DNA from: a virus
Taxonomy: Duplodnaviria; Caudoviricetes
DNA length: 64,000 nt
Direction: 5' to 3' (one strand)
IMG/VR virus record: IMGVR_UViG_3300006204_000008
Location: 14,924 to 78,923 of that record
Below, in pieces: positions 19,278 through 48,839 of the stretch. Under the pieces are notes generated by a model. It was not told the origin of the DNA. It saw nothing but the letters and a program-made list of their open reading frames with translations, and did not search any database. Position 1 is the stretch's first letter. Each line of letters opens with the position of its first letter. A program made the position numbers and the translations under genes.

Positions 19278-19368
19278 ATGGCAAAGTGTATAAATACCAC
19301 TATTTACCAGTGGGGGGGGGCGTTCTGACCTCCTGATTGGCGAAATGCCCAAAGGGGGGTGCGTCTGA
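19278..19368 (+). promoter_or_regulatory. Poly-G leader uORF switch A (G9, predicted OFF)
   Basis: SD GAGGA+ATG 19278; G9 19312-20; stop 19326-28; G8/G11 would read to TGA 19366-68 overlapping ATG 19368. Confidence 0.8.
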
Positions 19369-19877
19369 TGGCATATGTTGCCCCCAACTGGAAGAATGGC
19401 GCGGCCCCCGCGCTGGATGCCGCAGCCTTACAGGCAATCAGCGACGCCATTGTGGAGTTGCAAAACAAGAATACGTCCCAGGATAGCCTGATTGCTTCTT
19501 TGCAGTCAGAAATTTCATCCCTAAAGGATGGAAATATTCAGGTAGCCAGCGGATCATATTCAGGCACAGGAAGATCCGGAAGCTATGAAAACAGCACGAG
19601 AATTAACTTTCCCTTTGTTCCTGGCGTTATCTTCCTCTATTGCCCTAATGATGGCTGCTGCATGACCATCACTTCGAGTTCACAACAGAATACAATGTAT
19701 CTGTTTGGCTCCAGCGGATCTGTGGTTTATGCATTTGATTGGACCCAGATTTCTGTAAGCCCAAAGTATGGTACAGGATCTATTGCTTGGTATGGGAGCT
19801 CGGCTAAGAGACAGGCGAATGAATCAGGAAAGAAGTATTACTACCGAGCGTTTGGTAGGGTAGAAAAGAGTGCTTGA
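19368..19877 (+). CDS. Adhesin/receptor-binding-like paralogue A
   Basis: Shared N-terminus MAYVAPNWKNGAAPALDAAALQAISDAIV; GSYSGTG...INFPFVP...WY...Q.N...YYY.AFG C-domain. Confidence 0.75.
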   Translation: MAYVAPNWKNGAAPALDAAALQAISDAIVELQNKNTSQDSLIASLQSEISSLKDGNIQVASGSYSGTGRSGSYENSTRINFPFVPGVIFLYCPNDGCCMTITSSSQQNTMYLFGSSGSVVYAFDWTQISVSPKYGTGSIAWYGSSAKRQANESGKKYYYRAFGRVEKSA

Positions 19878-19938
19878 TATCCAAAGTTATATTTTGCCAT
19901 AGGTGTTGCGGCACTGATTTCATAAAGGAGGAATCTGC

Positions 19939-20643
19939 ATGGGCACCACATGGTCAGAAGTTATCACGGACTATGCGATGCTGGAGATCAACGACATACG
20001 CCTCCAGCAGGAATCGGCACAGAATCCGGCGCAGTTTTTCCGGCGGATGAGTGCGTATATGAAAAATGCGATCCCCCGATTTACCAGTCCCCCGGAAGAA
20101 CGGGCGTGGCTTTCCCATACACCCCCTCAGTTTTGGGATACCGCATGGACGGCCCCGGCGGGAGGCGAAGCGGCCACGCTGGAGACAGGTCAAACGGGTT
20201 TTGAGATGATGAGCGTGGTGGAGGCCCAAGCCGCAAGGACGGGGGAAACCCTTTGGGTGCCGTACACGGAGGCCAGCTATGACCCGGAGACGGGGGACGT
20301 GTGTTTTCCAGCGGGCATCCCGGAGGGGACGCGGTTCCGTCTGGATTTCTTCACCGACGGTGTGTTTGACTACGAACTTTCCGAAGAGGAAAAGCATATC
20401 CTGGCCCTGTTTATCAAGCTGATCTGGACGAAACGCTTCGCCGGGGACTGGCTGAATATGCAGCCCAAGGTCAAGGATAAGAGTTTCAGCACCGGCGCAG
20501 AGTCGAACCAGATTCGGGCCATGACGGAGCGGGGAACAGCAGACAGCTATGATGTGTATGCGCAGATGGCAACGTATGCGCAGAACGTGGAATATCTGAA
20601 CCTTCTGCGGCAGGGCCGTGTCCCGACCCCCAGGAGGCCATGA
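19939..20643 (+). CDS. Putative head-tail adaptor
   Basis: Position after head genes; 234 aa. Confidence 0.5.
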   Translation: MGTTWSEVITDYAMLEINDIRLQQESAQNPAQFFRRMSAYMKNAIPRFTSPPEERAWLSHTPPQFWDTAWTAPAGGEAATLETGQTGFEMMSVVEAQAARTGETLWVPYTEASYDPETGDVCFPAGIPEGTRFRLDFFTDGVFDYELSEEEKHILALFIKLIWTKRFAGDWLNMQPKVKDKSFSTGAESNQIRAMTERGTADSYDVYAQMATYAQNVEYLNLLRQGRVPTPRRP

Positions 20644-20655
20644 GGGGAAAAGGCT

Positions 20656-22005
20656 ATGGCAGGAGAAGAACACACAGTGAGGATAGAGGACAGGCTTAGG
20701 AATGTATCTGCTGTGGCGGATGTCCCTATCGTGATCCCGGGAAATACTCCGGCCCAGGCGGCAGGGCGGCAGTTTGCCTATTTTGAAGGGGAGACGGCTC
20801 TGTTTCGTGAGTTGTATGACCAGTACGCCGCCGATTATTTTGAGGCCCAAGTCCAGGGACTTGACCCGGAGGATTTTATGGCCTGGAGCTGGCAGAAGCT
20901 CCGCTTTTCGGATATGGCGGACCTGACGCCGACGGCAACATACCTGTCGGACAATATCAAGCTGGTGCTGTTTGCCAGTGCGGCGATTCAGTATGTGCCC
21001 CGTGGGGCGAAGATCGTGACGGCGGGCTCTACCTGGTTAGTGACCAACCCGCAAAGCATTTCTGGGGTCAGTGCGGTGGCGGTGGCGGAACGCTGCGCTG
21101 CCATGTGGCACTATTTTGACTGGTACGGAAACGTCAAGGGGGAGCCGATGGTGGTGCGGGATCAGATTGCCCGGGCTTCTGCCCAAGACCCCCAGGACTG
21201 GCTTTTGATTACGAAGCAGTATTTCAACGTCAAAATGCAGTACAACGAGGCAACCGCCCAACTGAACACAAACAGCCGCATGATCCTGGGCTCGGGAGCC
21301 TACCACATTACGGGATATTCTGACTTCCTGCGGGAGTTTACGGAGGACGGAGAAAGTATCCACATGGTGGAATTCGCCCTGCGGTATGAGGAGCCCAACG
21401 ATGCCATCGACGATATGGCGCGGCAGGTAGCGGGAGGAAAGAACTTCTCGTGGGAGGTGGATGTCTCCGGCCCGAAGCAGCTGCGGGTGGGAGAGAATGC
21501 GGTGTATCAGGCCGCGTCCCTGCGGTGTGGGGAGGGGGTGGAGAACAGCGAGGAGCATCCCATCACCTACCTATGGGGCAGCAGCGACAGCGAAATGGCG
21601 CAGGTGGATGAGGCAAGCGGAGAAGTGACAGCCTTTGCTGCCGGACGGGTCACCCTGACAGCTGTCTTGTCTGAGAACCCGGAGCATAGCGGGAGCTTTG
21701 AGATTGAAATCTCAGAAGCAGCGCCGGAGGAGAAGTATGCTGTCTTTCTGGGAACGGTACCGGAAAAACTGTCAGCCTATGAAAGTATGACGCTCCGTGC
21801 TGTCTGCTGCCGGGGCGGCACTCAGCTGCCCGAGGAGCCGGTGACGTGGAACTTCACTGGGGCGCAGCTGAGTGCCTATAGCGCGGTGGTCCATGGAAAC
21901 GAGGCGCATATTTCCTGCTGGGGCGGGAGTGTGGAGCCTTTGGCCGTCACAGTGTCGTTTGGAACAGGAAAGACCACAGCGGAAATTCAACTGGAAGGGA
22001 TCTGA
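20656..22005 (+). CDS. Putative head-closure/neck protein with Ig-like (Big_2) domain
   Basis: YLWGSSDSEMAQVDEASGEVTAFAAGRVTLTA Big_2-type motif. Confidence 0.6.
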   Translation: MAGEEHTVRIEDRLRNVSAVADVPIVIPGNTPAQAAGRQFAYFEGETALFRELYDQYAADYFEAQVQGLDPEDFMAWSWQKLRFSDMADLTPTATYLSDNIKLVLFASAAIQYVPRGAKIVTAGSTWLVTNPQSISGVSAVAVAERCAAMWHYFDWYGNVKGEPMVVRDQIARASAQDPQDWLLITKQYFNVKMQYNEATAQLNTNSRMILGSGAYHITGYSDFLREFTEDGESIHMVEFALRYEEPNDAIDDMARQVAGGKNFSWEVDVSGPKQLRVGENAVYQAASLRCGEGVENSEEHPITYLWGSSDSEMAQVDEASGEVTAFAAGRVTLTAVLSENPEHSGSFEIEISEAAPEEKYAVFLGTVPEKLSAYESMTLRAVCCRGGTQLPEEPVTWNFTGAQLSAYSAVVHGNEAHISCWGGSVEPLAVTVSFGTGKTTAEIQLEGI

Positions 22006-22009
22006 ATAC

Positions 22010-22186
22010 ATGGCTTCTGAGAACTGCCCCCACGCAGTGAGAAAGCGGGGGGATGTGAGCATCCATTGCAAAAAGCTGGAGGGAGAGCGGTATACCCAGT
22101 GCGCCCACCAGTATTTCTGCGGCCAGACCAAGCGTTGGGAGGCATCACCCAATGCGGCGGACTGCCCGCTGCGGGTCCGAAAGTAA
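22010..22186 (+). CDS. Small Cys-rich hypothetical protein
   Basis: MASENCPHA...CAHQYFC...CPLR; tight operon packing. Confidence 0.7.
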   Translation: MASENCPHAVRKRGDVSIHCKKLEGERYTQCAHQYFCGQTKRWEASPNAADCPLRVRK

Positions 22187-22223
22187 AAGCGTACCAAGAC
22201 AAGCGAAGAGAAGGAGGAAGGGT

Positions 22224-22862
22224 ATGCAGATTTATCGGTTGAACGAAGAGAAAGCGGCGAAGCTGCGGGCCTATATGCCAGTGATGGAGAAGGCAGCGTT
22301 CGTGGAGCAGGCGGCCAGTCGCTGCTTTGATCGGTTGGAGGTGGGCTATCACGGGAACGGGATGGACCTGCCCCTGGCCCCCATGTACAAGGAAAATCCT
22401 CAGCTTCCGGCCCGATACCTGATGGGCGTTTTGGTGAAGTTCTACCTGGGCGAGAGTTTCGAGGGTGTAGAGGAGGATCCAGAGCTGATGAGTGCAGACG
22501 ATTACGACCGCTGGGCTCGGGCTGACCCCTTGGGACAGCTCATCCAGTGGAAGAGCAAGGATCCGGGGGCGCGGGAGACGGCGGCGTTCCTGCTGCGGGA
22601 CTATCACGATTTGGAGAAACGGTTTTACCGGGAGATCGCGGGCCTGCTGCAGGTGATGAACGATCCCCTGGGGCGGCTGTTCTATGTGCTGGAATCCTAC
22701 AGCCAGACCGGGCCGAACGCCTGGGAAAAAGGCGTGGAGGACTTGAAGAAGGTCCGGGATGAGCTGGAAGCCTACCATAAAGGGAAAGAAAAGGCGCGTG
22801 AGAAGGGGGAAGGCTGCGCTCAGGAGACGGAGGAAGGAGCGCGGAGCGATGGCGGCGTGTGA
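22224..22862 (+). CDS. Hypothetical virion-region protein
   Basis: SD AAGGAGG; operon packing. Confidence 0.75.
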   Translation: MQIYRLNEEKAAKLRAYMPVMEKAAFVEQAASRCFDRLEVGYHGNGMDLPLAPMYKENPQLPARYLMGVLVKFYLGESFEGVEEDPELMSADDYDRWARADPLGQLIQWKSKDPGARETAAFLLRDYHDLEKRFYREIAGLLQVMNDPLGRLFYVLESYSQTGPNAWEKGVEDLKKVRDELEAYHKGKEKAREKGEGCAQETEEGARSDGGV

Positions 22863-23553
22863 GGTGGGGTTTGAAAGCCCCTATTACCCCTATGAGAAGG
22901 TGCAAACGGGCTTCAACACCCTGCGCGGGGCCGAAGAAATTCCCGCCAAGATTCTTCGATATCTGCTTGACCTGCCGGACTGGAAAGGGTATCAGCCTGT
23001 AGATGATAACAGCAGGCCAAGGGTGAGGTTGGCAAAGTATGTGTACTATGACGATGCAAACCCTTTGTCTTATCCGCTGCCGTCACCCCAGCAGAAGCTG
23101 AGCCTGTTGTATGATGGGGACCAGCCTGTAGTGAACACAGACGAGGAGAAGGTGCGTCACCCCAAGGGTTACCGGCTGTATCCCCAGATGTATTGGGGGC
23201 AAAGTCAGCTGGAGGCCCAGACTACAGTGAAATGCTACATTGGTCGTGTGCTTCCTGTGAGCGAGATGAGGACAAGCATCGGCCTGAGTTTTGTGATCTT
23301 ATGCAATACCAGCCAGGAGAACAACACGAGAACGGACGCCTACTCCCGGGCGTATGACATTGAGCAGTGTATCATTGAGGCGCTGCACGGTGTGAATCTG
23401 TCAGGTATCGGCGTGGTGGAGTTCTCCCGGCCCAGCCACTTTGACAACGGGAGTGAAGCCATTGCCGACCAGGGAACCAACGTAGGCCGGGAGCTTCACA
23501 TGAGCATCAGCTGGATGGAGAGCGGAGGAAGCGAAGATGGAACTCTCGGCTAA
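22849..23553 (+). CDS. Putative tail terminator/completion protein
   Basis: Position before tail tube; overlapping gene ends. Confidence 0.5.
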   Translation: MAACEVGFESPYYPYEKVQTGFNTLRGAEEIPAKILRYLLDLPDWKGYQPVDDNSRPRVRLAKYVYYDDANPLSYPLPSPQQKLSLLYDGDQPVVNTDEEKVRHPKGYRLYPQMYWGQSQLEAQTTVKCYIGRVLPVSEMRTSIGLSFVILCNTSQENNTRTDAYSRAYDIEQCIIEALHGVNLSGIGVVEFSRPSHFDNGSEAIADQGTNVGRELHMSISWMESGGSEDGTLG

Positions 23554-24409: not shown

Positions 24410-24425
24410 AAAGGAGTAAACACGC

Positions 24426-25565: not shown

Positions 25566-25583
25566 TGATAGAGGGATAAATAC

Positions 25584-25842: not shown

Positions 25843-25933
25843 GTGGCGAAATACACAATTACCAATAAATGGATACGGGGGGGGGCATTCTGACCTCCTG
25901 ACTAGCAGAATGCCCAAAAGGGGGTGCGTCTGA
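25843..25933 (+). promoter_or_regulatory. Poly-G leader uORF switch B (G9, predicted OFF)
   Basis: SD AGGAGG+GTG 25843; G9 25877-85; stop 25891-93; G8/G11 reads to TGA 25931-33 overlapping ATG 25933. Confidence 0.8.
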
Positions 25934-27474: not shown

Positions 27475-30400
27475 ATGGCAGAGATCGTCACGTTAAAAGT
27501 TAATGTTGACCGGGGACAGCTGACCGCCCTCCAGGCGGACTTGGCGAAACTACAGTCTAAGACGGTGGACATTAAGGTAAACGCCTCCGGGTTTGCGGCA
27601 TTGGACAAGAACATCGTCAAGAACATCAACAGCGTATCCCGCTTTGTCAATGCCGCCTCCCGACTGGAAAAGACCCAGGCCCAAGTGCGGATTGCCCAGG
27701 AGCGGACGGCGCAGGCAACTCAGCGGAGGATGACGGCGGAGAGCCAGCTTGCCGCACAGCAGGCGCGGCTTGCAACGCAAAACGCCAGGACGGCAACGGA
27801 GGAAGCACGGCTTGCCACCCAGACCCAGAAAACCGCCACGGAGGAAGCCAAGGCAGCGACCCAGGCCCAGAGAGTGGCCCAGGAGCGGGCCAAACTGGCT
27901 ACCCAGACCCAGCGGACCGCGACGGAAGAGGCGCGGCTTGCCACCCAGCAGGAACGCACACGGACCGCCCAGGCCCGGGCGTCGGCGTCCCAGCAGAGGA
28001 TGATCCGCTCTACTAACGAAGCGACCCAGGCCAACAATAACCTCATTACCAGCCTTGCCAGCAGCGCAAAGGGAATGGCACAGTCGATGCTGACGGCGGC
28101 GCTGATTTATAAGCCTGTCCAGTCGTTCAAGGAAGCTCTGGAAACCATGAAGGCTGTGGATGCCGAGCTGGTCAACGTGGGCAAGGTGACCAAGTGGCCG
28201 GAGGAACGGTTGAAGGCCATGGGAGAGCAGGCATACAAGACTGCTTCTGAATATGGCGTGGCGGCGAATGAGTATTTGTCGAGCGTAACGGAGTTTACTC
28301 GGGCAGGCTATCTGGGACAGAGCGAGGCGTTGGCAGAGCTGGCGAACAAGACGCAGATCGTGGGTGACACCACGGCAGATGTGGCCAACCAGTTTTTGCT
28401 GGCGGTGGACAAGGGCTACCAGATGGGCGGTTCTGTTGAGAAGCTGAGCGCGGTGCTGGACGGGGCCAACGAGATTGGCAACAACTTTGCAACTAGCATC
28501 CCGAAAATTGCCGAGGGCCTTGGTAAGGTGGCGCCCATCGGCGCACAGGCCAAGGTGGGCATTGACGAACTGTCTGCCGCCATCGGCACGGTCACAGCCG
28601 TCACGCAGAGAAGCGGTACTGAGGCCGCGACGGCCCTTCGCGCCCTGTTCTTGAACATCATGGGCGACACTAAGACGGAGATTGACGAGGGCGTGACCTG
28701 GACCACAGGTGAAATCGCGGGTTTGCGGGACGTGCTGAATATCTATGCCTCCGACGTAGTGGCGGCGGCGGATGCTACGGGCAGCCTCATCAATCCCATG
28801 GAAGCCATCGGGGCGCTGTCGCAGTCGATGAAGGACGGCGTTCTGACGGAACAGAAGCTGATGGAAATGGTTTCCGACATCGGCGGCAAACTCCGTACCT
28901 CTCAGCTGCTGGCCTTGATCCAGAACTGGGATATGTACGAGGCGATGCTGGATAAGTACGAAAACGCCGCCGGGTCTGCCGACCGGGAAGTGGAACGGGC
29001 CATGGATTCCTGGGGGAGAAAGACCGAGGTTCTGAAGAACACCTGGACACAGTTTGTTTCCCATATCGTAGAGACAGACACCATCAAAGGGACCATTACC
29101 GGGGTCACTGACGTCATTTCCGGGTTGGACACCCAATTTGGCCATGTAGCACTGAGCGTGGGGACATGGACTCTGGGGATTATGGGCGCGGCAAAGGCCG
29201 TGAATGCGCTCGGAACGGCCTTTGCTTCCTCAAAACTCATGTCGGGGATCAACTACCTGAGAAGCATGAATGCCCTGGGCGGCGCACAGGGCGTGATGAA
29301 AGGGCTTGGATTCCTGATAAAAACTAACCCGGTGATTGCCGGGGGTCTTGCCTTTGCGGGCCTGTATACTTTAGTCAAAGAGCTTCGGGAAGTCGCTCCG
29401 ACCGTGGAACACGCCAGAGACGAGATAGAAAAACTGCAAGCGCAGCTAGAAGAGGGTTTTGGTGGTGGCAGTGAGTACGAGGACCTTCTCTCCCGGGCGG
29501 ATAGTCTGACAGCGGCCGAGCAGCAGCGGCTTACCATTTTGAAAGCGCAGAAGCAGGCGTTGGAAGGGCAGATCGAGGACACCAAAGAGTTGGAATTTGC
29601 CCGTTTCCAGAATAACCTTGGCATTGGGAACGAGCGTCAGGAAATGTCCGGGAAAACCATAGACGAAACCCGGCTTGACAAGATGAGAAAGACGCAGGAG
29701 AGCTTGACAGAGGCTTTCCAAGCGGGTGAGATCGGTGCGACGGAGTTCAAGAAGGGTCTGACAGATCTGATTTCGGAGAGTGAGGAGTATTACAACGCCC
29801 TTGTGAAGTATAAGGACGCGGGATACGACCTGACCCAAGCTCAAAAAGCCACGATTGAGCGGTATGAATCTATCGCGCAGCTGCTGGGCACAGCAGAAAA
29901 TGGGTATCTGTCGGCGGCAGTGGCCTTGGAGCGGTTTGACGCCGCAGCGGAGGTAGGGGGGAAGACCCTGCTCAATGGAGATGCTTTGAAAAAGTCCCTG
30001 GAAGAAGCAGGGGCAACGGCGGAGCAGATCGAATCCATCCTGGCGAACATCGGCGAGGATGAGAACACCATCCTGATTGACATTGAAGCTGACCCGAAAG
30101 CCGCCTTGGATGCTTTGAAGGAAGTGGGCATTGCAGCGGAGAACGCCGACGGGACGATTGAGATCGACTATTCCGCGTTCAGCGGACTCATGAGCCAGCT
30201 GGGCTACACAAATGAAGAGGCTTCTTCCCTGACGCAGAATCTGAGAGAGCTGGGAAATGTCACATTCACGAATCTTCCCGGACAGATGGATGCGACCGGA
30301 GCGAAAATCGAAAGCGTTTCAGAGCGGACGCAGAATGCGAAGAGACAGCTGGACGCACTGGGCAGGACGAAGGCCCAGCCGAAGATAGAACTGAAAGATG

Positions 30401-33431: not shown

Positions 33432-33531
33432 ATGACAAATTGCACAATTACCAATAAATGGATGCGGGGGGGGGGGCTCTAGCCTACTAACCGTCAAAAT
33501 GACGAAGGGGGTGCTGGTATGCCTCTGGTGA
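33432..33531 (+). promoter_or_regulatory. Poly-G leader uORF switch D (G11, predicted OFF)
   Basis: SD AGGAG+ATG 33432; G11 33466-76; TAG 33480-82; G10/G13 reads to TGA 33529-31, overlapping the gene starting at 33519. Confidence 0.75.
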
Positions 33532-34518: not shown

Positions 34519-35478
34519 ATGGAACGAGAAAAAATACCGCCTGCGGAGCAGCAGCGGCGGTACAACGAATTGGAGCAGGAGACCAGCACAGACTTGGCGT
34601 ATTTCTATTGCTGCATCGCTTTTGATGTTCCCTTCGCTCCAGAAGCGGTACCCAAGGACGAGGGGGCGGACCGGTGGGTGCAGTACCTCAAGAACCTAGC
34701 CCGGATGCCGCAATATCTGGACCGGAAGGGCAAGTATCTGAGCTTCCTGGCCGGGAGGACGAACGTCCTGGAGATTTTTGGGGCCAGCTTGGATGTGGGA
34801 CGGTTCCGGGAAGCTCTGGAGGACGGCAAGCCCGGGACCCGGGAGCAGAGGGAGACTTGGGGTGTGGGGCCTAAAAAATATCCCTACACCGCGGAAGATT
34901 ATGACGAGCTGGACCGGACTTATAAAATCCTCTCCTCAGATTTGGAGAAGGCCGGGGGCGTGTCTGTGAAGCAGGAGTTTGTCCTTCGCCGCTGCTCCAC
35001 CCGTACCCTTGAAATGAAACGGCTTGAGGACGCGGGCCGCCTAGACTCAGCCAAAAAGCTCCAGGAAATGATTCAAAAGGACCTGGAATCGGAACAGCTA
35101 CGCAAAAAGGACGCCAAGCCCGTTGAAGACTTCCGGCTGGATTCCCTGGCCGACGCACTGGAGAAGGCGGGGCTGATGCGGGAGGGAAAGTGGTGCCCCC
35201 CCGATGAGGCGTTTGAAATCTTCTTTGGGCATCCCCCTGCCTACCCTTACACCCGGGATGCGGCGGATCAGATGATCCTCATCAATGAGAACCGGATGCG
35301 GAACAACGACGGCCTGCCGGAGCTGGGGATTCTGCCGGACGAAATGCGTCTGGTGGATGAGCTGGGCGAGTTTGCCCAGGAGCAAAGTCCCAGAGAAGTG
35401 ACAGCGTATGAAAAGCTGGGCCTGGTGAAAATGCCCCCTGTGGGGCAGGGGGAAAGCCCGGAGGAGGGCGGGAACTGA
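34519..35478 (+). CDS. Putative terminase small subunit (positional)
   Basis: Directly upstream of TerL; helical and charged. Confidence 0.5.
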   Translation: MEREKIPPAEQQRRYNELEQETSTDLAYFYCCIAFDVPFAPEAVPKDEGADRWVQYLKNLARMPQYLDRKGKYLSFLAGRTNVLEIFGASLDVGRFREALEDGKPGTREQRETWGVGPKKYPYTAEDYDELDRTYKILSSDLEKAGGVSVKQEFVLRRCSTRTLEMKRLEDAGRLDSAKKLQEMIQKDLESEQLRKKDAKPVEDFRLDSLADALEKAGLMREGKWCPPDEAFEIFFGHPPAYPYTRDAADQMILINENRMRNNDGLPELGILPDEMRLVDELGEFAQEQSPREVTAYEKLGLVKMPPVGQGESPEEGGN

Positions 35479-35494
35479 TGGGAAAGGAGGAAGC

Positions 35495-37351: not shown

Positions 37352-37689
37352 GCAGCGCAAAGGAAAAAGTGTGGAAGGTCTGGGCTATGCCTTTCGGCGA
37401 AGATACGTCCCGGGAGGCCCAATCCTTTCCCTGCTGCCGGATCACGAAAGACTATATTCTGGTCTACAGCCCGCAGCCGCCCGAGGGAGCGGCGGTGGAG
37501 GTTGGAGCGGAAGAACTGTACCGGCTGACCGGGCAGGACAATGACTGGCTCCTGGGGGCACTCCTGGAGCAGCTGGGACGCAGGATGAAGGAAGAGGAAA
37601 AAGAAATCCAGTCCCGCCTGCGGGAGAAGGTGGAACAGCTGGCTGCTGAGCTGCAGAAGGAAGCAGAGAAAGAAGGGCTGCCCTTATGA
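37348..37689 (+). CDS. Hypothetical protein
   Basis: 4-nt overlaps at both ends. Confidence 0.7.
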   Translation: MSSAKEKVWKVWAMPFGEDTSREAQSFPCCRITKDYILVYSPQPPEGAAVEVGAEELYRLTGQDNDWLLGALLEQLGRRMKEEEKEIQSRLREKVEQLAAELQKEAEKEGLPL

Positions 37690-39467
37690 GAGAAGCACGG
37701 AATCTGACGGAAGATTTACAGCAGGCGGCATTCGGCTCCTACCAGGAAATCTTTGATACGTTCCGCACTTTGTCACAGAAGTATGGGAACCTGTCGCAGG
37801 ACGGCATGATCGCCGCCTTTACGCGGGTGAGCGGGCAGGGGGCTTTCCTCAATAACCCCTACATACAGAACCGGCGGGTGAAAGGTATTTCCTCTCTTCC
37901 GGCGGACTTCACCAAGGACCAGGTGGGGGAGATGCTGCGAAGCGCGGAGAGCAACGAGCAGCCCCTGCGGCAGGTGGAGCATGGGTTGGAGTATACGGCT
38001 TATCCGCTGCTCCACATGAGAAAGGTCTACCAGGACCTCCTGACCTATCACAACTGCTTTACGCCGGCTTTTGTAGACAGGGAGGACGTGAAGAAGGATT
38101 CCTTCTGGCGGGAATGGCGGCTGCTGGAAAAGATGAGACGGGAACTGAACCCAGGACGATGGGCCCATCAGATCGCCGGTCAGGCCATGCAGGAGGGGAA
38201 GGTGTTCTATGTTCCCCGGGTGGAGGTGGACAAGAGCCACAATGAAGTCTGCCACGCCTTTCTGCAGCAGCTGCCGTCGGACTGGACCAAAATCGTGGGG
38301 TTCAACAATAAGTCGAAGTATACGGTGTCGTTCAATCTCTTCTACTTCCTGCAGCCGGGGACGAACCCGCTCCAATTCGGGGACCTGTTCCTGCCTTACC
38401 TGGACCCGTTCTTTTCCCTCCTGCCGCCAAAGCCCCCGAAAGGGACGGGCAGGACGGTTCTGTACGCATCCAAGAATGCCTTGGACCTGACACGGTTTGA
38501 GGCCATGCAGAAAGCGGGGACGCTGGGAGGAGAAGTGGATGCCTATTATCAAAACGGGCGTTGGTTCTATTGGGTGACCCTCCCCGTGGAGAAAGTCTTT
38601 CCCTTTGAGATAGACGATGCCAACCGGGCAGTGGTATCCCCGTGGACGGGCCTGTTTTTGAGCCTGATCCAGCTGGCCCAGTATGAGCAGGTGCAGCTGG
38701 AGCTGGTGCAGAACCCGCTGATTTCCCTGCTGACGGGGGAAATCCCTTATTATGATTCCCAGTCCTCCAAACTGGAGGATACCTACCGGCTGTCCAGGAC
38801 GGGCCAGAAGATGTTTGAAAGTTTCTGGTACCAGATGTTGGAGCAGAGCAACACCAGCGGGATCGGCCTTTACATGGCTCCCCTGGCAAATATGAAGCTC
38901 CACACGCTGTCGGAAGCCCCTGGCGCCACGGAGATCAGTTCCAATGGCTACGCTTACACCATGGCGAAGGCAGGGCTGGCGGGCATCATCCCCACGAAGG
39001 AGGATCCGAAGGCCGGACTAGCGCAGATATCATTCAAGATCGAGAGCCGCTTTGCACAGCAGATTTATGGCGATTTTGAGCGGATGGTAAACTGCATCGT
39101 GAAGGGCCTGCATCTGAACTACCGATGGACTTTCCGTATGTTTGGAGATCTGGCGACAGACCCGGAGTTGGAGGAGGGCGCCCGAAAAGGTATGACTTTG
39201 GGCATCCTGCCAGACACCATTTTGTACAACGCCCTGCACGACCGCAGCATATTGGATGATATGTCGGTATCCTTCGCGGTGGCGGAAAGTGGTATCATGG
39301 ACGCACGGCTTCCCTTGGTGACCAGCTACAGCGCCAAGAATCCGGACAGCGGTCTGCCGCCGGAGGTAAAGCACGAGCTGAACCCTGGGGGACGCCCGGA
39401 CAGCGGAGGGAAGGCTACGTCGGAAGGCCAGGAGCAGGACATTGACCAGGGAGGAGGCACGGTGTGA
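37686..39467 (+). CDS. Portal protein
   Basis: 593 aa downstream of TerL; C-terminal PGGRP motif typical of portals. Confidence 0.75.
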   Translation: MREARNLTEDLQQAAFGSYQEIFDTFRTLSQKYGNLSQDGMIAAFTRVSGQGAFLNNPYIQNRRVKGISSLPADFTKDQVGEMLRSAESNEQPLRQVEHGLEYTAYPLLHMRKVYQDLLTYHNCFTPAFVDREDVKKDSFWREWRLLEKMRRELNPGRWAHQIAGQAMQEGKVFYVPRVEVDKSHNEVCHAFLQQLPSDWTKIVGFNNKSKYTVSFNLFYFLQPGTNPLQFGDLFLPYLDPFFSLLPPKPPKGTGRTVLYASKNALDLTRFEAMQKAGTLGGEVDAYYQNGRWFYWVTLPVEKVFPFEIDDANRAVVSPWTGLFLSLIQLAQYEQVQLELVQNPLISLLTGEIPYYDSQSSKLEDTYRLSRTGQKMFESFWYQMLEQSNTSGIGLYMAPLANMKLHTLSEAPGATEISSNGYAYTMAKAGLAGIIPTKEDPKAGLAQISFKIESRFAQQIYGDFERMVNCIVKGLHLNYRWTFRMFGDLATDPELEEGARKGMTLGILPDTILYNALHDRSILDDMSVSFAVAESGIMDARLPLVTSYSAKNPDSGLPPEVKHELNPGGRPDSGGKATSEGQEQDIDQGGGTV

Positions 39468-39468: not shown

Positions 39469-39654
39469 ATGGGGAAAGTGAGAGTAAGTGCGGCGGACCT
39501 GCGGTGCATCAACGACGCCCTGGAATCCGGGTGTGATGTGCGCATCCAGAATGTAAAAGGCGGCTACCGCATCATTGCGGAGCGGCCCAAGGTATTGAAG
39601 CGAGAACCGGACCGGGAAAACAGAACGGAGGAAAATACATGGCAAAGTGTATAA
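39469..39654 (+). CDS. Small hypothetical protein
   Basis: MGKVRVSAADL...; coupled to portal stop. Confidence 0.65.
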   Translation: MGKVRVSAADLRCINDALESGCDVRIQNVKGGYRIIAERPKVLKREPDRENRTEENTWQSV

Positions 39655-39730
39655 ATACCACTATTTACCAGTGGGGGGGGGGCGATCTAGCCTCCTGACT
39701 GGCAGAATGCCCAAAAGGGGGTGCGTCTGA
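39639..39730 (+). promoter_or_regulatory. Poly-G leader uORF switch C (G10, predicted OFF)
   Basis: SD GGAGG+ATG 39639; G10 39673-82; TGA 39696-98; G9 gives TAG; G8/G11 reads to TGA 39728-30 overlapping ATG 39730. Confidence 0.8.
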
Positions 39731-41068: not shown

Positions 41069-41096
41069 TTGACATTCCCCAAGTTTATGGTATAAT
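41069..41096 (+). promoter_or_regulatory. SigA promoter of tail-tip operon
   Basis: TTGACA(41069-74)-16 bp-TG.TATAAT(41091-96). Confidence 0.8.
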
Positions 41097-43357: not shown

Positions 43358-46300
43358 GTGGCCTACTTCGCCGCCACCGGAAGCGAACAGAGCTTTACCA
43401 TGCCCAAAGCGGGGCGGTATTACATAGATGTGGCCGGCGCGGAAGGCGCTGTGGGCAACAGCTATTCCGGCAGCTATGGGTCTGTCCCCGGCAAGGGAGC
43501 CAGACTTCGCCTGCTGGTAGATCTGGCCGCAGGGGATGTTCTGACGGTCATCGTCGGCAAGCAGGGAAAGGGGACCAACGGGACCGCGAAGGATGGTGCT
43601 TCCGGCGGGTCCGGCGGCGGGACCTTCGTTTTCAAGCGGATTGCTTCCGTCACCAACGCCAACTATCAGTTCACCAAGAACGGGGTGAACTACGAGGTGT
43701 TGGCCGTAGCCGCCGGCGGCGGCGGGACCGGGGACCAGAGCTATAAATCAGCGGTGAGCAACGGGGCCAACGGCCTTGGCGCAGCATATAAGCATCCGGG
43801 AAACTATGTGGCCTGGTCCACCCAGACGGCAAGCCTGACCTCCTCTGTGAGCCTGTCCGCCCCGCTGAGTATTTCTCAGTATATCGCCAACGGAGCTGGG
43901 GGTGCTTACTATACCCGCGGTTCCTCCACAGGCACCGGAGGATTTGGCATGGGCGGAGCCACGGATGACAATCCCTCCTGCGGCGGCGGCTGGTCCGGCA
44001 ATAACACGGGGGTCTATTCCTGGGCCATCAACACCAGTGCCATAGGCGAGGACGGGGCCAACAGCGGGGATGGTTACGCGGAGATCACCGAGCTGAAAAC
44101 CATGCTGACCAACCTGATTCCCAACCCCAGCTTTGAGACGACGGCGGATTGGTCCGGGCTGACCCGTTCCACCACCTATGCAGATTTTGGGCAATATTCC
44201 TCCCGCCTGGGGAGCACGTCAGGCACCGGCACCTATATCAATACGGTCAAGCCCACCAAGCCCCCGGTGAAGGGGCACAAATACTATGGGCGGCACTATC
44301 TGCGCACCACCACCAATGTCACCACGGCGGATAACCGCTTTGAACTCTACGCCGGAGACGGTGCGGGGCTGAACTTCGTGTTTGGCAACAACGGCGGAAA
44401 TCACCCCCAGTGGGATATGGAGTCTAAGATCATCACGCTGACCACACTGGCCTCCGCCGCGTCCAACTACAGCATCCGCAACTTTACGGTCAACGCCTCC
44501 AATTATGTCTACTGCGACGGGCTGATGCTCATTGACCTGACTGCAGCCTTCGGGGCCGGGAACGAGCCCAGCAAGGAGTGGTGCGACCGGGTGATCCCCT
44601 TCTTCGAGGGGACCAGGGCGGTGACCGTGCGGGCCAAGGCCACCATTACCAGGCAGCCGGTGAGCGGGAGCTATATCATCAACACCGCCGCCTCGGCCCT
44701 GACGGTTGCCGCCACGGGACAGGGGACGCTTTCTTATCAGTGGCAGCGGTCCAGCAACGGCAGCAGCTGGACCAATATTTCTGGGGCGACGGGGACCGCC
44801 TACACCCCGCCGACAACGGCCCTTGGAACCATCTATTACCGCTGTGTGGTGACGGATACCCTGGGCGCCCCGGCCCTGTATCCCTCCACCGCACTTTATC
44901 CTGGAACCGTGCTGTACCCCATGGCGGAGGGTCTTTACGACACAGCGGCCACCAACAGCACGGCGGTGACGGTACTGGTTTACGGAGCGGTGGCCCCCAC
45001 TATCACCACCCAGCCTGTGAGCGCCACCTACGATAACAGCGAGACACCGGTTCCTCTGACTGTAGCGGCGTCGCCTCCAGCCAACGGGACCCTGGAATAC
45101 CAGTGGCAGAACAGCCCCAACGGAAATACCTGGACGAATATCTCTGGAGCTACAGGGACCAGCTATACACCGCCCACCAGCACCAACGGGTCCATTTCCT
45201 ACCGCTGCGTGGTGACGAACGTGGTTCAGTCTGACCGCAAGTCCACCAATTCCAACACGGCTACCATTACCATCCGAGGTGCCGTAGCACCTACGATCAG
45301 CGCACAGCCCCAGAGTTCGGCCTATGGACTGGAGGACACGCCGGCGCCTTTAAGCGTGACAGCGTCCACCACCCAGGGAACGCTGAGCTATCAGTGGTCG
45401 GTGTCTGGGGACGGGGGCATCACCTGGGCCAATATCGCCGGAGCCACGTCCAGTACCTACACCCCGCCCACGGACAGCACGGGGACGAAGCAATACCGGG
45501 TGACGGTGACCAGCACAGTGGGCATCTCTACCGCTTCTGTGGTTTCTGACCCGGCCAGCGTTACGGTTTACGCCGCAACAATACCGGTATTTACCAGGCA
45601 GCCCACCGGGGCCACCTATGACCATGGGGCAGAGGCCGCGCCTCTGACAGCGGCGGCAAGTGCGGAATGGGGCGCTGTTCTTTATCAGTGGGAACGGTCC
45701 GAGGATGCCGGCGCAAGCTGGAGCGAGATCCCGGGAGCCACGGCGGCTTCCTACATGCCCCCGACCACCCCGGGTGGGACGGTTTCCTACCGGCTCAAGG
45801 CCACCAATATCGTTGGCCCTACCTCCGAAAGCGCCTATTCCGACACTGCGGTCATTACCATCCTGTCGGCCTCCGCGCCTGTGTTTGCCGCGCCCCTGAG
45901 CGGGGCGGAATACGATCAGGGAGATCCGACGACCGCTCTGATCGGAACGGCCGCATCCCCGCATGGTACCGTGACTTATCAGTGGTACGGCAGGACGGGA
46001 AGTGGGGCTTTCTCCGCCCTCACAGGCCAGACTGCCGCAGCCTTTACGCCGCCCAGCGCGGCCCAGGGTGTGTATCAATACTACGTCGTTGCCACCAACA
46101 CCGTGGGGACTTCCACGGCCACGGCCCAAAGCAATACCGTCACCATCACGGTCTATGGGGCCACGGAGCCGATCTTTACGGTTCAGCCAGTGAGTGCGGA
46201 TTATATTGAAAACGACCCGGCAGCGGCTCTGACTGTTGCGGCCACCGTGGAGCGGGGAAGCCTTGCCTTCCAGTGGCAGTTGTCTCGGGGGACGGTCCGG

Positions 46301-48010
46301 GCGTGGTCTGATATCCCGGGGGCAGACGCAAACGCTTATACACCACCTACCAGTGTCCCGGGAACATACCAGTACCGCTGTGTAGCGGTGAATACCGTGG
46401 GTACCTCCGTCGCTACCAGCTTTTCGGAGACGGCGCAGATCACGGTGACAGCGGCCCAGGTCCCTGTTTTCCTGCATCCGCTGGTCAATGCCACCTACAG
46501 TCTGCTTTCCCTCACCGGGGAGCTGGACGGCACGGCGGAGGTCACGGACGGGGGTACTATCACTTACCGGTGGTTCATGGCAGAGAAGGGACAGTCCTTT
46601 GTGGAAATCCCTGACGCGGTGTATGCTGCCTATCAGCCCAAGTCCATCACGGCAGGGGTATGGCAATACTACGTCATCGCTACTAACACGCTCCATAACT
46701 CCGTACGCAGCGCCACGTCCAATACGGCGGAAATTACTATCATCGACCGGCGGTGGACGGCGGCGGAGAAGATGCGGGACTATCTAAACCAGCTCCGCAC
46801 ACCCTTTGTAAAATTGTGCCGCCTGCGTTTCCTTCAGCCCGACGGGTCCACGGCCTTTGCCCTGGACAACAACCCCTTTAACCGCCGCAGTGGGGCTTTT
46901 ATCGCCGACGGGAGCATTTCATGCAACCTCCAGAACGGCACCCGCCGTACAGCCACGGTGAATCTCTCAAACCTCGATGCCGCCTACGACTACAACCTCA
47001 ACATGGTTTGGTTCGGTCAGGAGATCGCCATCGATGAGGGCCTTGTCCTCTCCAATGGGGAGGACTACTACATCCAGCAGGGAATCTTCTGTGTGGAAAG
47101 CCCAACGGAGACCGTAGAGCCAGGGAACCGGGTGGCCCAATACAATCTTACTGATAAATGGTCCATGCTGGACGGAACGTTGTTTGGCTACCTGGAGGGG
47201 ACGTATGAGGTGAAAGTGAACACCAACATTTTTGAGCCGATTCAAGCGATCTTGTCCTTGGACCGGGGGAATGGGCGGAAAGTAGATGCTGTGCCACCGG
47301 TTTTCACGGAATATTACAACACAAAAACCCAAAAACTTGCGGACGGAACTACAGTCAAGCTAACTGATTCTCCGTATACTCTTCGTGTTGATGGGGAGAG
47401 CGGGTCCTATGGAGACGTGGTTCTGGGGATGGCGGAGATGGTAAATGCCTGGGTCGGCTACGATTCCGCAGGTGCCCTGCGCCTGGACCCATCCCAGGAT
47501 GATATCCTTGACACGGACAAACCCATACTCTGGCGTTTCTCCATGGAGGAGGCACAGTTATTGGGCGCAGCCTACACGGTGAAAAACACGGAAGTCTACA
47601 ATGATTACATCGTGATCGGCGAACAGTTGGATGACAACAGCCAGCCTGCGGGTCGGGCCACCAACTTAGACCCCATGAGCGACACCAATGTACAGACCAT
47701 AGGCCGCAAGACGTTCCGGCAGAGCGCGGCGGGATACGCCACAAAACAGCAATGTGAAGACAGAGCTGTTTGGGAACTGAAACGGTCTGCGGGATTGCAA
47801 AAGGCGGTGTCTATCTCCTGTACGCAGATGTTCCACCTTGAGGAAAACAACCTTGTCACCGTGACCCGGACGGACAAGCCGGGGTCTCCGGTAGAGCGGC
47901 ACCTGATCATGGGCTTTGAGCGGCCCTTGGCAGGCACAGGGGAGATGACCATCACGGCAGTGTCGGTGAATGATTACCCAAACGCCACGGTGACGGGTTG
48001 GCCGGAGTGA
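43358..48010 (+). CDS. Large tail-tip hub/adhesion protein: Gly-rich domain, CBM-like domain, seven Ig-like repeats, C-terminal hub
   Basis: AGGGG..GSGGG Gly-rich N-terminus; NLIPNPSFE; seven P.(I/F)T.QP...Y...L.V.A...YQW units; C-terminal ~420-aa baseplate-hub-like region. Confidence 0.8.
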   Translation: MAYFAATGSEQSFTMPKAGRYYIDVAGAEGAVGNSYSGSYGSVPGKGARLRLLVDLAAGDVLTVIVGKQGKGTNGTAKDGASGGSGGGTFVFKRIASVTNANYQFTKNGVNYEVLAVAAGGGGTGDQSYKSAVSNGANGLGAAYKHPGNYVAWSTQTASLTSSVSLSAPLSISQYIANGAGGAYYTRGSSTGTGGFGMGGATDDNPSCGGGWSGNNTGVYSWAINTSAIGEDGANSGDGYAEITELKTMLTNLIPNPSFETTADWSGLTRSTTYADFGQYSSRLGSTSGTGTYINTVKPTKPPVKGHKYYGRHYLRTTTNVTTADNRFELYAGDGAGLNFVFGNNGGNHPQWDMESKIITLTTLASAASNYSIRNFTVNASNYVYCDGLMLIDLTAAFGAGNEPSKEWCDRVIPFFEGTRAVTVRAKATITRQPVSGSYIINTAASALTVAATGQGTLSYQWQRSSNGSSWTNISGATGTAYTPPTTALGTIYYRCVVTDTLGAPALYPSTALYPGTVLYPMAEGLYDTAATNSTAVTVLVYGAVAPTITTQPVSATYDNSETPVPLTVAASPPANGTLEYQWQNSPNGNTWTNISGATGTSYTPPTSTNGSISYRCVVTNVVQSDRKSTNSNTATITIRGAVAPTISAQPQSSAYGLEDTPAPLSVTASTTQGTLSYQWSVSGDGGITWANIAGATSSTYTPPTDSTGTKQYRVTVTSTVGISTASVVSDPASVTVYAATIPVFTRQPTGATYDHGAEAAPLTAAASAEWGAVLYQWERSEDAGASWSEIPGATAASYMPPTTPGGTVSYRLKATNIVGPTSESAYSDTAVITILSASAPVFAAPLSGAEYDQGDPTTALIGTAASPHGTVTYQWYGRTGSGAFSALTGQTAAAFTPPSAAQGVYQYYVVATNTVGTSTATAQSNTVTITVYGATEPIFTVQPVSADYIENDPAAALTVAATVERGSLAFQWQLSRGTVRAWSDIPGADANAYTPPTSVPGTYQYRCVAVNTVGTSVATSFSETAQITVTAAQVPVFLHPLVNATYSLLSLTGELDGTAEVTDGGTITYRWFMAEKGQSFVEIPDAVYAAYQPKSITAGVWQYYVIATNTLHNSVRSATSNTAEITIIDRRWTAAEKMRDYLNQLRTPFVKLCRLRFLQPDGSTAFALDNNPFNRRSGAFIADGSISCNLQNGTRRTATVNLSNLDAAYDYNLNMVWFGQEIAIDEGLVLSNGEDYYIQQGIFCVESPTETVEPGNRVAQYNLTDKWSMLDGTLFGYLEGTYEVKVNTNIFEPIQAILSLDRGNGRKVDAVPPVFTEYYNTKTQKLADGTTVKLTDSPYTLRVDGESGSYGDVVLGMAEMVNAWVGYDSAGALRLDPSQDDILDTDKPILWRFSMEEAQLLGAAYTVKNTEVYNDYIVIGEQLDDNSQPAGRATNLDPMSDTNVQTIGRKTFRQSAAGYATKQQCEDRAVWELKRSAGLQKAVSISCTQMFHLEENNLVTVTRTDKPGSPVERHLIMGFERPLAGTGEMTITAVSVNDYPNATVTGWPE

Positions 48011-48058
48011 TTTTAGGGCTGTGATACAATGAGAGATAAGATGACAGGAAGGAGAGAT

Positions 48059-48153
48059 ATGACTATGGCGAAATACACAATTACCAGTAAATCCCAACGG
48101 GGGGGGGGTGCCTCCATAACACCCTAGGCACCTTGCACAAGGGGGTGGCGTGA
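48059..48153 (+). promoter_or_regulatory. Poly-G leader uORF switch E (G10, predicted OFF)
   Basis: SD AAGGAG; ATG 48059/48065; G10 48099-108; TAG 48125-27; G9 gives TAA; G8/G11 reads to TGA 48151-53 overlapping ATG 48153. Confidence 0.8.
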
Positions 48154-48839
48154 TGGCTTACGTTGCCCCCAAGTGGAAGAACAGCGGACCGCCCGCCTTG
48201 GACGCTGCCGCGCTGCAAGCGATTTCTGATACATTGGCGAAAGTGCCCATTGAAAATGGTGGGACTGGGGCTACCAGCGCTGCGGCTGCCCTCCATGCAC
48301 TCATCAGTGCAGTCGAAGGAGTGAATGAAACGGGGATCACTTCCAGTTCCCGTATCCCATTTGATGTTTGGCCAGATGGCCCTGCGAAATATATAACAGC
48401 GAATGGACTCGGAAGGTACTTTGCAAGAAATGTTGATGGCCTGATGATGCAGGTTGGTTCCTATGTCGGGACAGGGCTTTATGGAAGTGGTAACCATAAC
48501 ACGCTTACTTTCACCATGTATCCTAAATTTGTTTGGCTGTTTGGGATGTGTAATTCCAGTTATACAAGTGGAATAGGCACCAAACTTAGTCTGATAGGAA
48601 TCAACGACGGGGGAGATAACAACACCATTTATTCGACAGCACCTGGATGGTATGTGTCTGGGTACAAACAAGAACAAGGATTTTGGTATAAATCTTCTTC
48701 TACATATTCATATGGGCGTGAACAAAGTATATCAACCGGAGATGGCAGAGTGAGATCTTTAAGATGGTATAACACACAAAGTGCATCTGCACAGCTTAAT
48801 CAAAGCTCAACGAGGTATATATGGCTTGCTTTGGGCTGA
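48153..48839 (+). CDS. Adhesin/receptor-binding-like paralogue E
   Basis: MAYVAPKWKNSGPPALDAAALQAISD; GSYVGTGLYG..LTFTMYP...WYN..SASAQLNQSSTRYIWLALG. Confidence 0.75.
   Translation: MAYVAPKWKNSGPPALDAAALQAISDTLAKVPIENGGTGATSAAAALHALISAVEGVNETGITSSSRIPFDVWPDGPAKYITANGLGRYFARNVDGLMMQVGSYVGTGLYGSGNHNTLTFTMYPKFVWLFGMCNSSYTSGIGTKLSLIGINDGGDNNTIYSTAPGWYVSGYKQEQGFWYKSSSTYSYGREQSISTGDGRVRSLRWYNTQSASAQLNQSSTRYIWLALG

Follow-up and report, generated by a model that had tools for sequence, protein, structure and literature searches.

In the pil1 locus of Streptococcus gallolyticus the regulated genes are preceded by a translated leader-peptide gene that contains a slippage-prone repeat (Danne et al. 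2014, PMC3894217). The number of repeats sets the frame and the length of the leader, and only long leaders reach a stem-loop and raise expression; opening of this stem-loop by the ribosome gates the downstream genes, and low expression is the majority state (PMC3894217). In Haemophilus influenzae the repeat is found in a small upstream gene, lex2A, while lex2B, downstream of it, codes for the enzyme (PMC3116884). Among phages, the Campylobacter Fletchervirus group is described as carrying hypermutable polyG tracts of 7–11 G in receptor-binding protein genes, which give rise to subpopulations (Sorensen et al. 2021, Cell Rep 35:109214, as summarised in 10.1101/2025.10.21.683753). Short homopolymers also cause reversible frameshifts in T2, T4 and other phages as a form of bet-hedging, at contingency loci of at least 6 bases that lie mostly within ORFs and are under-represented in tail fibres (Gomez, Barrick and Waters, bioRxiv 10.1101/2025.10.21.683753). 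Our literature search found no paper uniting phase variation, translational coupling and a repeat tract.

The DNA considered here is a 64,000-nt stretch (the window) of the 78.9 kb genome of an uncultured gut phage. It holds five runs of G, all on the plus strand, each in a short leader gene ahead of a paralogous main gene. By analogy, this cassette is best read as a phage counterpart of the pil1 switch, since in all leaders the repeat likewise lies inside an SD-led leader ORF upstream of the main gene. There are clear differences. The pil1 repeat is a GCAGA pentanucleotide and not a G homopolymer, its stem-loop is an intrinsic transcription terminator whereas the phage hairpin has no U-run, and it has one short and two long frames where the phage leader has two short and one long. 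Unlike pil1, the phage device apparently acts on the SD and start codon of the gene that follows, through a stop-start overlap, and it is used six times in one genome. The run lengths are in the range summarised for Fletchervirus and the genes are again putatively involved in host recognition; in that summary the runs are inside the coding sequence, whereas here they occupy a separate leader ORF and leave the coding sequence untouched. These dedicated 9–11 base runs in leader ORFs before fibre-like genes also differ from the loci of the T2/T4 type, and lex2A carries a tetranucleotide repeat at a bacterial LOS locus instead of a G run. The sequence-only reading that preceded this work had not recognised the layout as a described phage system. 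Precedents do exist, as gating by a leader repeat is published for pil1 and poly-G switching of phage receptor-binding genes for Fletchervirus.

A comparison can also be made with attenuation of the ermC/cat type, in which a short leader ORF and alternative RNA pairings determine whether the SD of the following gene is masked or free. The signal there is drug-induced ribosome stalling, in contrast to the heritable change of leader frame that we propose.

Layout of the cassettes

Homopolymers of at least 9 bases occur six times in the whole 78.9 kb genome, and all six are cassette G runs. Five are in the window (Table 1), as had been counted from the sequence alone; the sixth belongs to an additional cassette, F, at genome position 13295, about 1.6 kb upstream of the window, and is a G9 in a short frame. 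The leader start codon (ATG or GTG) lies exactly 34 nt 5′ of the G run in nine of nine leader types, and every leader has its own SD 6–10 nt upstream of this start. The sequence 5′ of the leader start is non-homologous between cassettes, yet an SD is present in each. From the G run to the main-gene start is 42–47 nt in cassettes A–E, and translation of every run length gives a main frame that is closed between the two. Each cassette further contains a CCUCC-type anti-SD segment and a strong GGGGG SD for the main gene. The leaders sit within long same-strand operons, and a promoter reading was rejected because the leaders share no consistent sigma-70-like site.

Table 1. Features of cassettes A–E, numbered from the first letter of the window.
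Feature	Position	Strand	Comment
Leader A (uORF, SD-led, ATG 19278)	19278..19367	+	
Leader A short-frame stops	TGA 19326-28, TGA 19334-36	+	
Leader A anti-SD CCUCC	about 19329-19334	+	
Cassette A main SD	19353-19361	+	
Leader A long-frame stop	19366-68	+	overlaps main ATG
Run A, G9	19312..19320	+	long frame needs G8/G11
Paralogue A, 169 aa	19368..19877	+	conserved N-terminus, long helix, beta-sandwich head (predicted)
Leader B (uORF, GTG 25843)	25843..25932	+	perfect 10-bp hairpin from the last three G's of the run
Run B, G9	25877..25885	+	long frame needs G8/G11
Paralogue B, 171 aa	25933..26448	+	
Leader C (uORF, ATG 33432)	33432..33518	+	short-frame stops TAG, TAA; long frame ends 13 nt inside main gene
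Run C, G11	33466..33476	+	long frame needs G7/G10/G13
Paralogue C, 203 aa	33519..34130	+	subgroup with F, C-terminal domain different
Leader D (uORF, ATG 39639)	39639..39729	+	part before the run identical to that of leader A
Run D, G10	39673..39682	+	long frame needs G8/G11
Paralogue D, 163 aa	39730..40221	+	
Leader E (uORF, ATG 48065 or in-frame ATG 48059)	48065..48152	+	
Leader E linker			diverged sequence; retains 7-bp hairpin at the end of the run, CCUCC and UGAUG overlap
Run E, G10	48099..48108	+	long frame needs G8/G11
Paralogue E, 228 aa	48153..48839	+	

Frame logic and its conservation

When every run length was translated for cassettes A–E, two frames met a stop 6–19 nt after the run (the short frames) and the third (the long frame) continued to the main gene. 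A stop-start overlap, formed in the long frame only, is UGAUG in A, B, D, E and the P0002 type and UAAUG in L069-71; in F, C, L007 and L047 the long-frame stop falls 8–13 nt beyond the main start. In the commonest state the leader and the main gene are in the same frame with one or two stops between them. The early stops use TGA, TAG and TAA in different leaders, and leader B has two of them in frame, so that recoding of a stop codon was rejected. Selection on the long-frame peptide was also rejected: its residues vary freely between near-identical leaders, and the peptide itself is therefore probably unimportant.

The sequence-only reading had placed the five tracts in SD-led uORFs before paralogues, with lengths of G9, G9, G11, G10 and G10 in A–E and all of them currently closed. 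Coordinates, SDs and all-length translation bear out the arrangement, the same lengths were found and all five runs are in a short frame. The lengths it gave for the open frame are right for A, B and E and were exchanged between C and D, and the overlap with the main start that it described at A, B and E is present at D as well, C being the leader that ends inside its gene.

The frame logic is conserved. At least five diverged leader types from other metagenomes keep it, and leaders with diverged linkers (A/B/D/F type, C, E, L007 type, L047 and L069 type) all retain two early stops and one frame that closes at -1 or at +8 to +13 of the main start, whereas shuffling the linkers of nine leaders reproduced the three-frame layout in only 1–4.5% of cases per leader. 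Conservation of the closed-frame stops had been put forward earlier as a check, and both the short-frame stops and the long-frame stop are indeed retained in diverged leaders with different stop codons. The module is found also before an unrelated fibre-like gene (L051). In the family member L065, which lacks a repeat, a uORF of 18 codons finishes in a UAAUG overlap.

Variation in run length between samples

Run lengths were read from contig consensus sequences, and the G9–G11 lengths, which come from short-read assemblies, may be wrong where contig coverage is low. The runs are hypervariable. Stretches of 4–10.6 kb in contigs from other samples align without a mismatch in two phage lineages, and the indels there are confined to the G runs. 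Contig L054 aligns with the genome over 9,928 nt with no mismatches and two indels, both within runs, and L019 over 10,617 nt with no mismatches and one indel, this being run D, which is G11 (long frame) in sample 3300006168. For L017 and L053 every indel of the 10–12 kb shared part falls in runs A and B. The second lineage behaves in the same way, with L028 against L010 and L040 against L007 each giving 4,026 nt, no mismatches and a single indel in the run.

Across samples run A is G9, G10 or G11, run B is G9 and in two others G8 (long frame), and the L010 locus is G9, G10 or G11; the lengths at one locus spread up to G8 to G11. Repeat length thus differs between otherwise identical genomes, and gains and losses both occur at a single locus, as expected of a reversible contingency locus. 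Since run length is the sole difference between otherwise identical phage copies, it most likely serves to switch, at random and heritably, the choice of fibre heads that the virus produces. The open-frame alleles G8 and G11, proposed earlier as a test in relatives, were both found. The 36 observations comprise two of G8, 10 of G9, 18 of G10 and six of G11. Long-frame alleles (A at G11, B at G8 in two samples, D at G11 and L028 at G9) make up five of the 36 against 12 expected, with a nominal p of 0.008 for observations that are not independent. This scarcity fits a mostly silent bank such as that of the relative L011 described below, but also a switch of opposite polarity.

The main genes

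The six main genes encode small proteins that share an N-terminus and are predicted to have a long helix and a variable beta-sandwich head (the structure model has a pLDDT of 74). The paralogues had been described as having a common N-terminus and different C-terminal domains; the first part stands, and the second needs qualifying, as A, B, D and E have framework motifs in common in the C-terminal domain also and C and F form a second subgroup. The head resembles predicted tail-fibre proteins in weak BFVD matches (E 3e-7 to 2e-5); in the PDB it comes closest to a phage tail fibre, at a Z of 5.8, which is under the safe level. A Foldseek search of the PDB gave generic Ig-like matches only. Pfam gave nothing for the paralogues and PHROGs only marginal matches, a PDB sequence search found no match, records of cultured phages contained no DNA or protein match and a search for longer fused relatives returned four weak matches only. 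In leaderless relatives the gene is located between the tail genes and the holin. The gated genes would most likely provide alternative heads for a tail fibre or receptor-binding protein, in competition for one docking site.

Relatives carry other arrangements. The distant relative L011 has four paralogues with the same N-terminus and with C9–C11 inside codons 17–20, one of the four being in frame, and in the deletion variants L008 and L009 the G run falls inside the gene. Intragenic runs like those summarised for Fletchervirus are hence present in L011, where the run is poly-C, and in L008 and L009, and absent from cassettes A–E. Some contigs join the leader of B to gene D (13.6 kb skipped) or the upstream of A to D (20 kb skipped), one head gene (P0002) is found behind three different leader upstreams, and in one relative the modules are in a different order.

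RNA structure and the main ribosome-binding site

A strong, ideally spaced SD precedes each of the main genes, which could therefore be translated independently. The predicted accessibility of this SD is below the median of 36 other phage genes for all six main genes (percentiles 3–42). Two competing folds of similar energy are predicted, of which one masks the SD and the other frees it, and between F and B one stem pair shows a compensatory change from G-C to A-U. The hairpin is predicted to be weak in C and in the L069 type, so it is not universal. On these predicted structures translation in the long frame passes over anti-SD, SD and start codon, and in the short frames it ends before or within the anti-SD; a ribosome terminating in a short frame would also briefly cover the anti-SD, so that the states may differ by degree and not as on and off. 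A search of the leaders against Rfam found no matching family. A terminator or attenuation reading was rejected, there being no U-run after the hairpin and no terminator-like site on the plus strand of any leader.

Discussion

Slipped-strand phase variation through a leader peptide and translational coupling is our best reading of these data, and we consider it probable. Each cassette would be a contingency locus whose repeat lies in a short translated leader ORF and not in the gene under control. Slippage of the DNA polymerase would alter the G run by one or two bases, and run length would decide the reading frame of ribosomes as they come off the run. In two of the frames termination would follow 6–20 nt further on, before or inside the CCUCC-type segment, and the main gene would be left to its own, partly masked SD with low or no expression. 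In the third the ribosomes would traverse the anti-SD and SD and terminate on the main start (UGAUG or UAAUG) or 8–13 nt past it; such reading would open the structure and allow termination-reinitiation, and the gene would therefore be on. We infer both that the main gene depends on the long frame and in which direction it does so. The phase variation that had been proposed from the sequence alone is in this sense partly supported.

The same switch could act with opposite or graded polarity, so that a short leader leaves the SD free and the gene on, and a long leader occludes initiation and turns it off or dims it. Expression would then be expected at two out of three run lengths. We think this unlikely. 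In its favour, 31 of the 36 observed alleles are in a short frame, the main SD is strong and well spaced, and the lowest-energy fold in B, F and L059 leaves it free. Against this, a stop placed exactly on the start codon, as UGAUG in four leader types and UAAUG in a further one, is characteristic of positive coupling, and the repeat-free uORF of L065 keeps such a UAAUG. Occlusion would be better served by the gene's +1 frame, which is naturally long and open, yet this frame is always closed at -1 to +13. In L011, where the off state is unambiguous, three of the four genes are off too.

It is improbable that the G run acts as RNA, its length tuning the pairing with the CCUCC in cis, with CCCCC codons of the gene or with an RNA in trans, as a rheostat. 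The G-repeat of H. pylori tlpB and the small RNA RepG provide the model for this. Several pairings between G-rich and C-rich segments are possible, and in the folds of lowest energy the run is paired with GCCCCC in codons 4–6, but RNA pairing leaves the conserved leader SD and start, the fixed 34-nt distance and the three-frame stops without explanation.

Slightly less probable again is that the length differences are homopolymer errors of sequencing or assembly, and the cassettes ordinary duplicated 5′ regions that do not switch. No sites in short-read data are more prone to error than runs of G9–G11, coverage is about 1x in some contigs (L020, L047), and the genome offers no internal control of equal length because the cassette runs are its sole long homopolymers. 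Long JGI contigs of 20–79 kb nevertheless show changes of +2, +1 and -1 at the same loci as their sole differences, the pattern recurs in the second lineage, and the run is kept in diverged copies and in the poly-C relative; the conserved frame layout would moreover be without reason.

The repeated leader and N-terminus might instead serve mainly as a site of homologous recombination that shuffles fibre heads and structural modules, with the G run incidental, which we regard as very improbable. The joins of the B leader to D and the A upstream to D, P0002 behind three upstreams and the reordered modules of the relative all point this way, yet the joins may be assembly chimeras across repeats of 70–200 nt, and recombination requires no run, leader SD or frame layout. 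It could coexist with the switch.

Recoding on the G run has the least chance of being right. Ribosomes would shift frame by +1/-1, or jump from GGG to the SD GGG in the manner of T4 gene 60, and yield a leader-fused protein or leaky expression independent of DNA run length. The hairpin and nearby stops after the run, the GGG codon in the main-gene frame of every SD (a GGG-to-GGG hop is compatible with the sequence because the G5-6 SD contains GGG in every frame) and the commonest state, with both genes in one frame and one or two stops between, would suit it, but homologues begin at the main ATG with a normal SD, the stops are 2–6 codons past the last GGG with none adjoining the take-off codon, the hairpin begins inside the run and so leaves no 5–9 nt spacer, B has two in-frame stops, and length variation is seen directly in the DNA.

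Returning to phase variation through the leader, a broader reading, which we put forward tentatively and hold with rather less than even confidence, is that the leader is a portable contingency module of host-recognition genes in phages of gut Clostridia. Its parts would be an SD, 11 codons, the G run, two early stops, the anti-SD, the SD and the stop-start overlap, with six copies gating a bank of fibre heads and the repeats doubling as crossover points. If so, host range would be diversified on two time scales with the coding sequences untouched, and crossovers at the repeats would swap heads and whole structural modules.

If the leader frame sets fibre output, the cassettes would be a compact hedge of viral host range in which a reversible slip of one base leaves the receptor-binding gene intact. 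Should the heads compete for one docking site, a population would be a heritable and reversible mix of virion types, with up to 32 states for five switches, as counted from the sequence alone, and up to 64 with F, in both cases only if each switch is binary and independent. Leader-peptide phase variation, published so far for a bacterial pilus, would be extended to phages, and consensus sequences of metagenomic phages could conceal functionally different subpopulations. The leader would also be a very small, portable stochastic switch for use in synthetic biology, and it is easily searched for, flagging candidate host-recognition genes in uncultured phages.

Leader cassettes and their reading frames

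The window spans bases 14924–78923 of a 78.9 kb IMG/VR virus record, judged complete by CheckV, and holds five cassettes, A–E (main genes at 19368, 25933, 33519, 39730 and 48153), in which a leader, a short upstream ORF carrying a run of G residues, precedes a paralogous main gene. The positions and lengths of the five runs match those given in the sequence-only reading, and translation of each leader at every run length places all five in a short frame, one of the two that stop early, as that reading had it. The run lengths it gave for the open frame hold for A, B and E but had been swapped between C and D: the main start is reached only at G8 or G11 in A, B, D and E, and only at G7, G10 or G13 in C. 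Searching the entire genome by pattern revealed one more cassette, F, which lies 1.6 kb ahead of the window and has a G9 run in a short frame preceding a further paralogue. It lies outside the structural region and is preceded by a 275-residue gene without a family match. The genome contains six homopolymers of at least nine bases, every one of them a cassette G run. The only other G8 sits in a terminator-like GC-rich hairpin followed by T residues, and has the same length in L018, the single other assembly covering that site.

The paralogues had been described as sharing an N-terminus and differing in the C-terminal domain. The first 35 residues are indeed common to A, B, D and E, but the C-terminal domain of these four also has common framework motifs, arranged around a hypervariable middle. 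C and F make up a separate subgroup.

A Shine-Dalgarno (SD) sequence lies 6–10 nt upstream of every leader start, and the DNA before the start is non-homologous between cassettes. In all nine leader types, from this phage and other metagenomes, exactly 34 nt separate the leader start from the run. The SD and this fixed spacing would be hard to explain unless ribosomes start at the leader ATG or GTG and the frame matters. We compared leaders with diverged linkers, namely the type shared by A, B, D, F and the protein cluster P0002, those of C and E, the L007 type (found in a 73%-identical phage), the human gut metagenome leader L047, and the L069-71 type. In every one, two frames close within 6–20 nt after the run, while the third, the long frame, crosses the main SD without a stop and terminates on the main start or 8–13 nt past it; where it ends on the start the overlap is UGAUG, or UAAUG in L069-71. 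The early stops, already seen to use different codons in different copies, are kept across the diverged leaders as TGA, TAG or TAA depending on the leader. When linkers were shuffled with the last 14 nt fixed, this three-frame layout was reproduced by 1–4.5% of shuffles per leader; its retention by four or five largely independent linkers is therefore far beyond chance. Placement of a stop at the start codon is specific, since the +1 frame of gene A would otherwise be open for more than 30 codons. The long-frame peptide sequence varies freely among near-identical leaders, and it seems to be the destination of the ribosome that counts, not the peptide made. Recoding is a less likely explanation of such leaders.

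Run-length variation

Exact-protein look-up showed that the same phage had been assembled independently from five JGI samples and from one Logan run, and we compared these assemblies base by base with the present genome.

Assemblies of the same phage compared with the present genome
Assembly	Length compared	Mismatches	Indels
L054	9,928 nt	0	2: run A (G10), run B (G8)
L019	10,617 nt	0	1: run D (G11)
L017/L053	10-12 kb shared part	8	2: run A (G11), run B (G8)
L016	20,492 nt	0	0
L052	14,510 nt	0	0

In a second lineage, each of the pairs L028/L010 and L040/L007 aligned over 4,026 nt with no mismatches and a single indel, in the G run. Over 36 contig-by-locus observations the run was G8 twice, G9 in 10, G10 in 18 and G11 in 6, with long-frame alleles in 5 (nominal p 0.008, the observations not being independent). 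Open-frame alleles, proposed in the sequence-only reading as the ON state, therefore exist in other assemblies, and both gains and losses are seen at a single locus. As there is no control homopolymer of equal length, a residual chance persists that some length differences are consensus errors; sequencing error is nevertheless a less likely account of the variation.

Repeats in relatives and possible recombination

Four adjacent genes of L011, a 62-kb IMG/VR contig, have the same N-terminal motif with C9–C11 inside codons 17–20 of each; all four need C10, and one is in frame. L008 and L009 are deletion variants of the L007-type leader in which the G run falls within the main gene; as far as the run, L008 has 100% identity to a contig whose leader is intact. 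The assembled ORF of each (L008:3979 and L009:3955) shares its frame with an ATG that precedes the run by 6 nt. A repeat-free family member, L065, has an 18-codon upstream ORF with its own SD and a UAAUG overlap with the main start, and in members P0008 and P0015 the gene simply begins downstream of a small gene, between the tail genes and the holin. On L051, a contig beginning inside the leader, homologous pre-run sequence, G9, a hairpin and a GGGGG SD precede an unrelated 331-residue gene; the leader may be portable.

Crossovers fall at cassettes in the mosaic contigs L017, L018, L055, L059 and L060. The B leader is joined to gene D, skipping 13.6 kb including the tape measure gene; the A upstream is joined to D, skipping 20 kb; a D-type linker is found within cassette A; and the head gene P0002 follows leader upstreams of the D, C and B types. 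The joins reflect either true recombination or chimeric assembly across repeats of 70–200 nt. In the 73%-identical relative L007/L010 (IMGVR_UViG_3300006143_000061) the structural modules have a different order (tail protein, cassette, module of 34519–39467, cassette, module of 19939–23553), with cassettes at the module borders. Ends or beginnings of L061, L062 and L063, from the Oscillospiraceae genome bin MGBC111873, fall at a cassette. One of the three contigs begins directly after the G run, an indication that the cassette repeats break assemblies. That the cassettes are purely recombination sites is less likely.

Predicted RNA structure

A perfect 10-bp hairpin beginning in the last three G residues of the run is predicted in F and B, with one compensatory change between them (G-C to A-U). 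It is retained with wobbles and mismatches in A and D; E has a 7-bp hairpin of unrelated sequence at the equivalent place and the L007 type a 9-bp stem with one mismatch. A CCUCC or similar pyrimidine run in the loop or linker is able to base-pair with the GGGGG of the main SD. The predicted lowest-energy fold masks the SD in A, D and the P0002 type, and in B, F and L059 is the hairpin with the SD free, at an energy similar to the masked form. Predicted SD accessibility of the six main genes lies at percentiles 3–42 relative to 36 other phage genes. These predicted folds agree with a gate at the level of translation. A rheostat of RNA only is less likely. An Rfam search of the leaders gave no match. 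An intrinsic terminator was rejected because no hairpin is followed by a U-run.

Proposed switch and precedents

On balance, the cassettes are probably a contingency switch acting via the leader peptide and stop-start coupling, in which the target of the leader ribosome would be the SD and start codon of the main gene. The long frame is present in only 5 of 36 alleles, which suits a mostly silent bank like that of L011 but would suit the opposite polarity too, with a long leader repressing the main gene; the exact stop-start overlap favours positive coupling.

The closest published case to the proposed coupling switch is pil1 of S. gallolyticus, where GCAGA repeats set the length of a leader-peptide gene and ribosomes melt a terminator only in long leaders (PMC3894217); the pil1 target is thus a terminator, whereas that of the phage cassette would be the SD and start codon. 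Phage receptor-binding genes switched by polyG are already published for Fletchervirus, as cited in 10.1101/2025.10.21.683753. Contingency loci of phages, and phase variation through a leader peptide in a bacterium, are likewise published; our literature search found no paper on leader-ORF repeat gating of phage genes.

The phage and its putatively gated proteins

The late region resembles that of a siphovirus and carries SPbeta-type structural families (YonD_N, YomW, YomU_Tube and YomN). The nearest protein clusters are from Bacillota, and relatives were found in contigs of an Oscillospiraceae genome bin (mouse gut catalogue) and other Clostridia bins. The protein encoded directly after cassette E combines YadA-head repeats with a Peptidase_G2 autoproteolytic (intramolecular chaperone) domain and is likely a constitutive tail fibre or spike.

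Coordinates of features (window positions unless marked)
Feature	Position	Strand	Detail
Cassette F	genome 13261-14190; L001:1483-2268		uORF, G9, 231-aa paralogue
tRNA	5853-5930	-	Rfam, above gathering score
Twister-sister ribozyme	10008-10085	-	Rfam, above gathering score, 65.7 bits
Type II hammerhead ribozyme	10660-10724	-	Rfam, above gathering score, 45.6 bits
G8 outside cassettes	13108-13115	+	
Tape measure protein	27475-33123		1,882 aa
Portal-like protein	37686-39467		
Sigma-70-type promoter	41069-41096	+	perfect 12/12 with extended TG; upstream of 695-aa gene at 41215
Tail protein	43358-48010	+	1,550 aa
56-nt repeat in tail gene	44759-45765	+	4 copies, spacing 294-363 nt; matches tandem Ig-like domains
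Peptidase_G2/YadA-head fibre or spike	49087-50400	+	437 aa
Endolysin	50945-51745		
Fibre-like genes	L011:1805-6341		four, 180-448 aa
Repeat-free leader	L065:2870-3005		
Leader before unrelated gene	L051:1-1079		

The family of gated proteins comprises 18 clusters in 5.8 billion proteins, none of them named. In an AlphaFold model of protein A (pLDDT 74), a short N-terminal strand is followed by a helix at 18–54 and a beta-sandwich at 57–164. BFVD matches to the sandwich are predicted tail-fibre proteins from gut viromes (E 3e-7 to 2e-5), and its best solved-structure match is a phage tail fibre with a Z of 5.8, too low for reliance. Judged by their size, layout and gene position in leaderless relatives, the gated proteins may be small receptor-binding heads that share a docking end.
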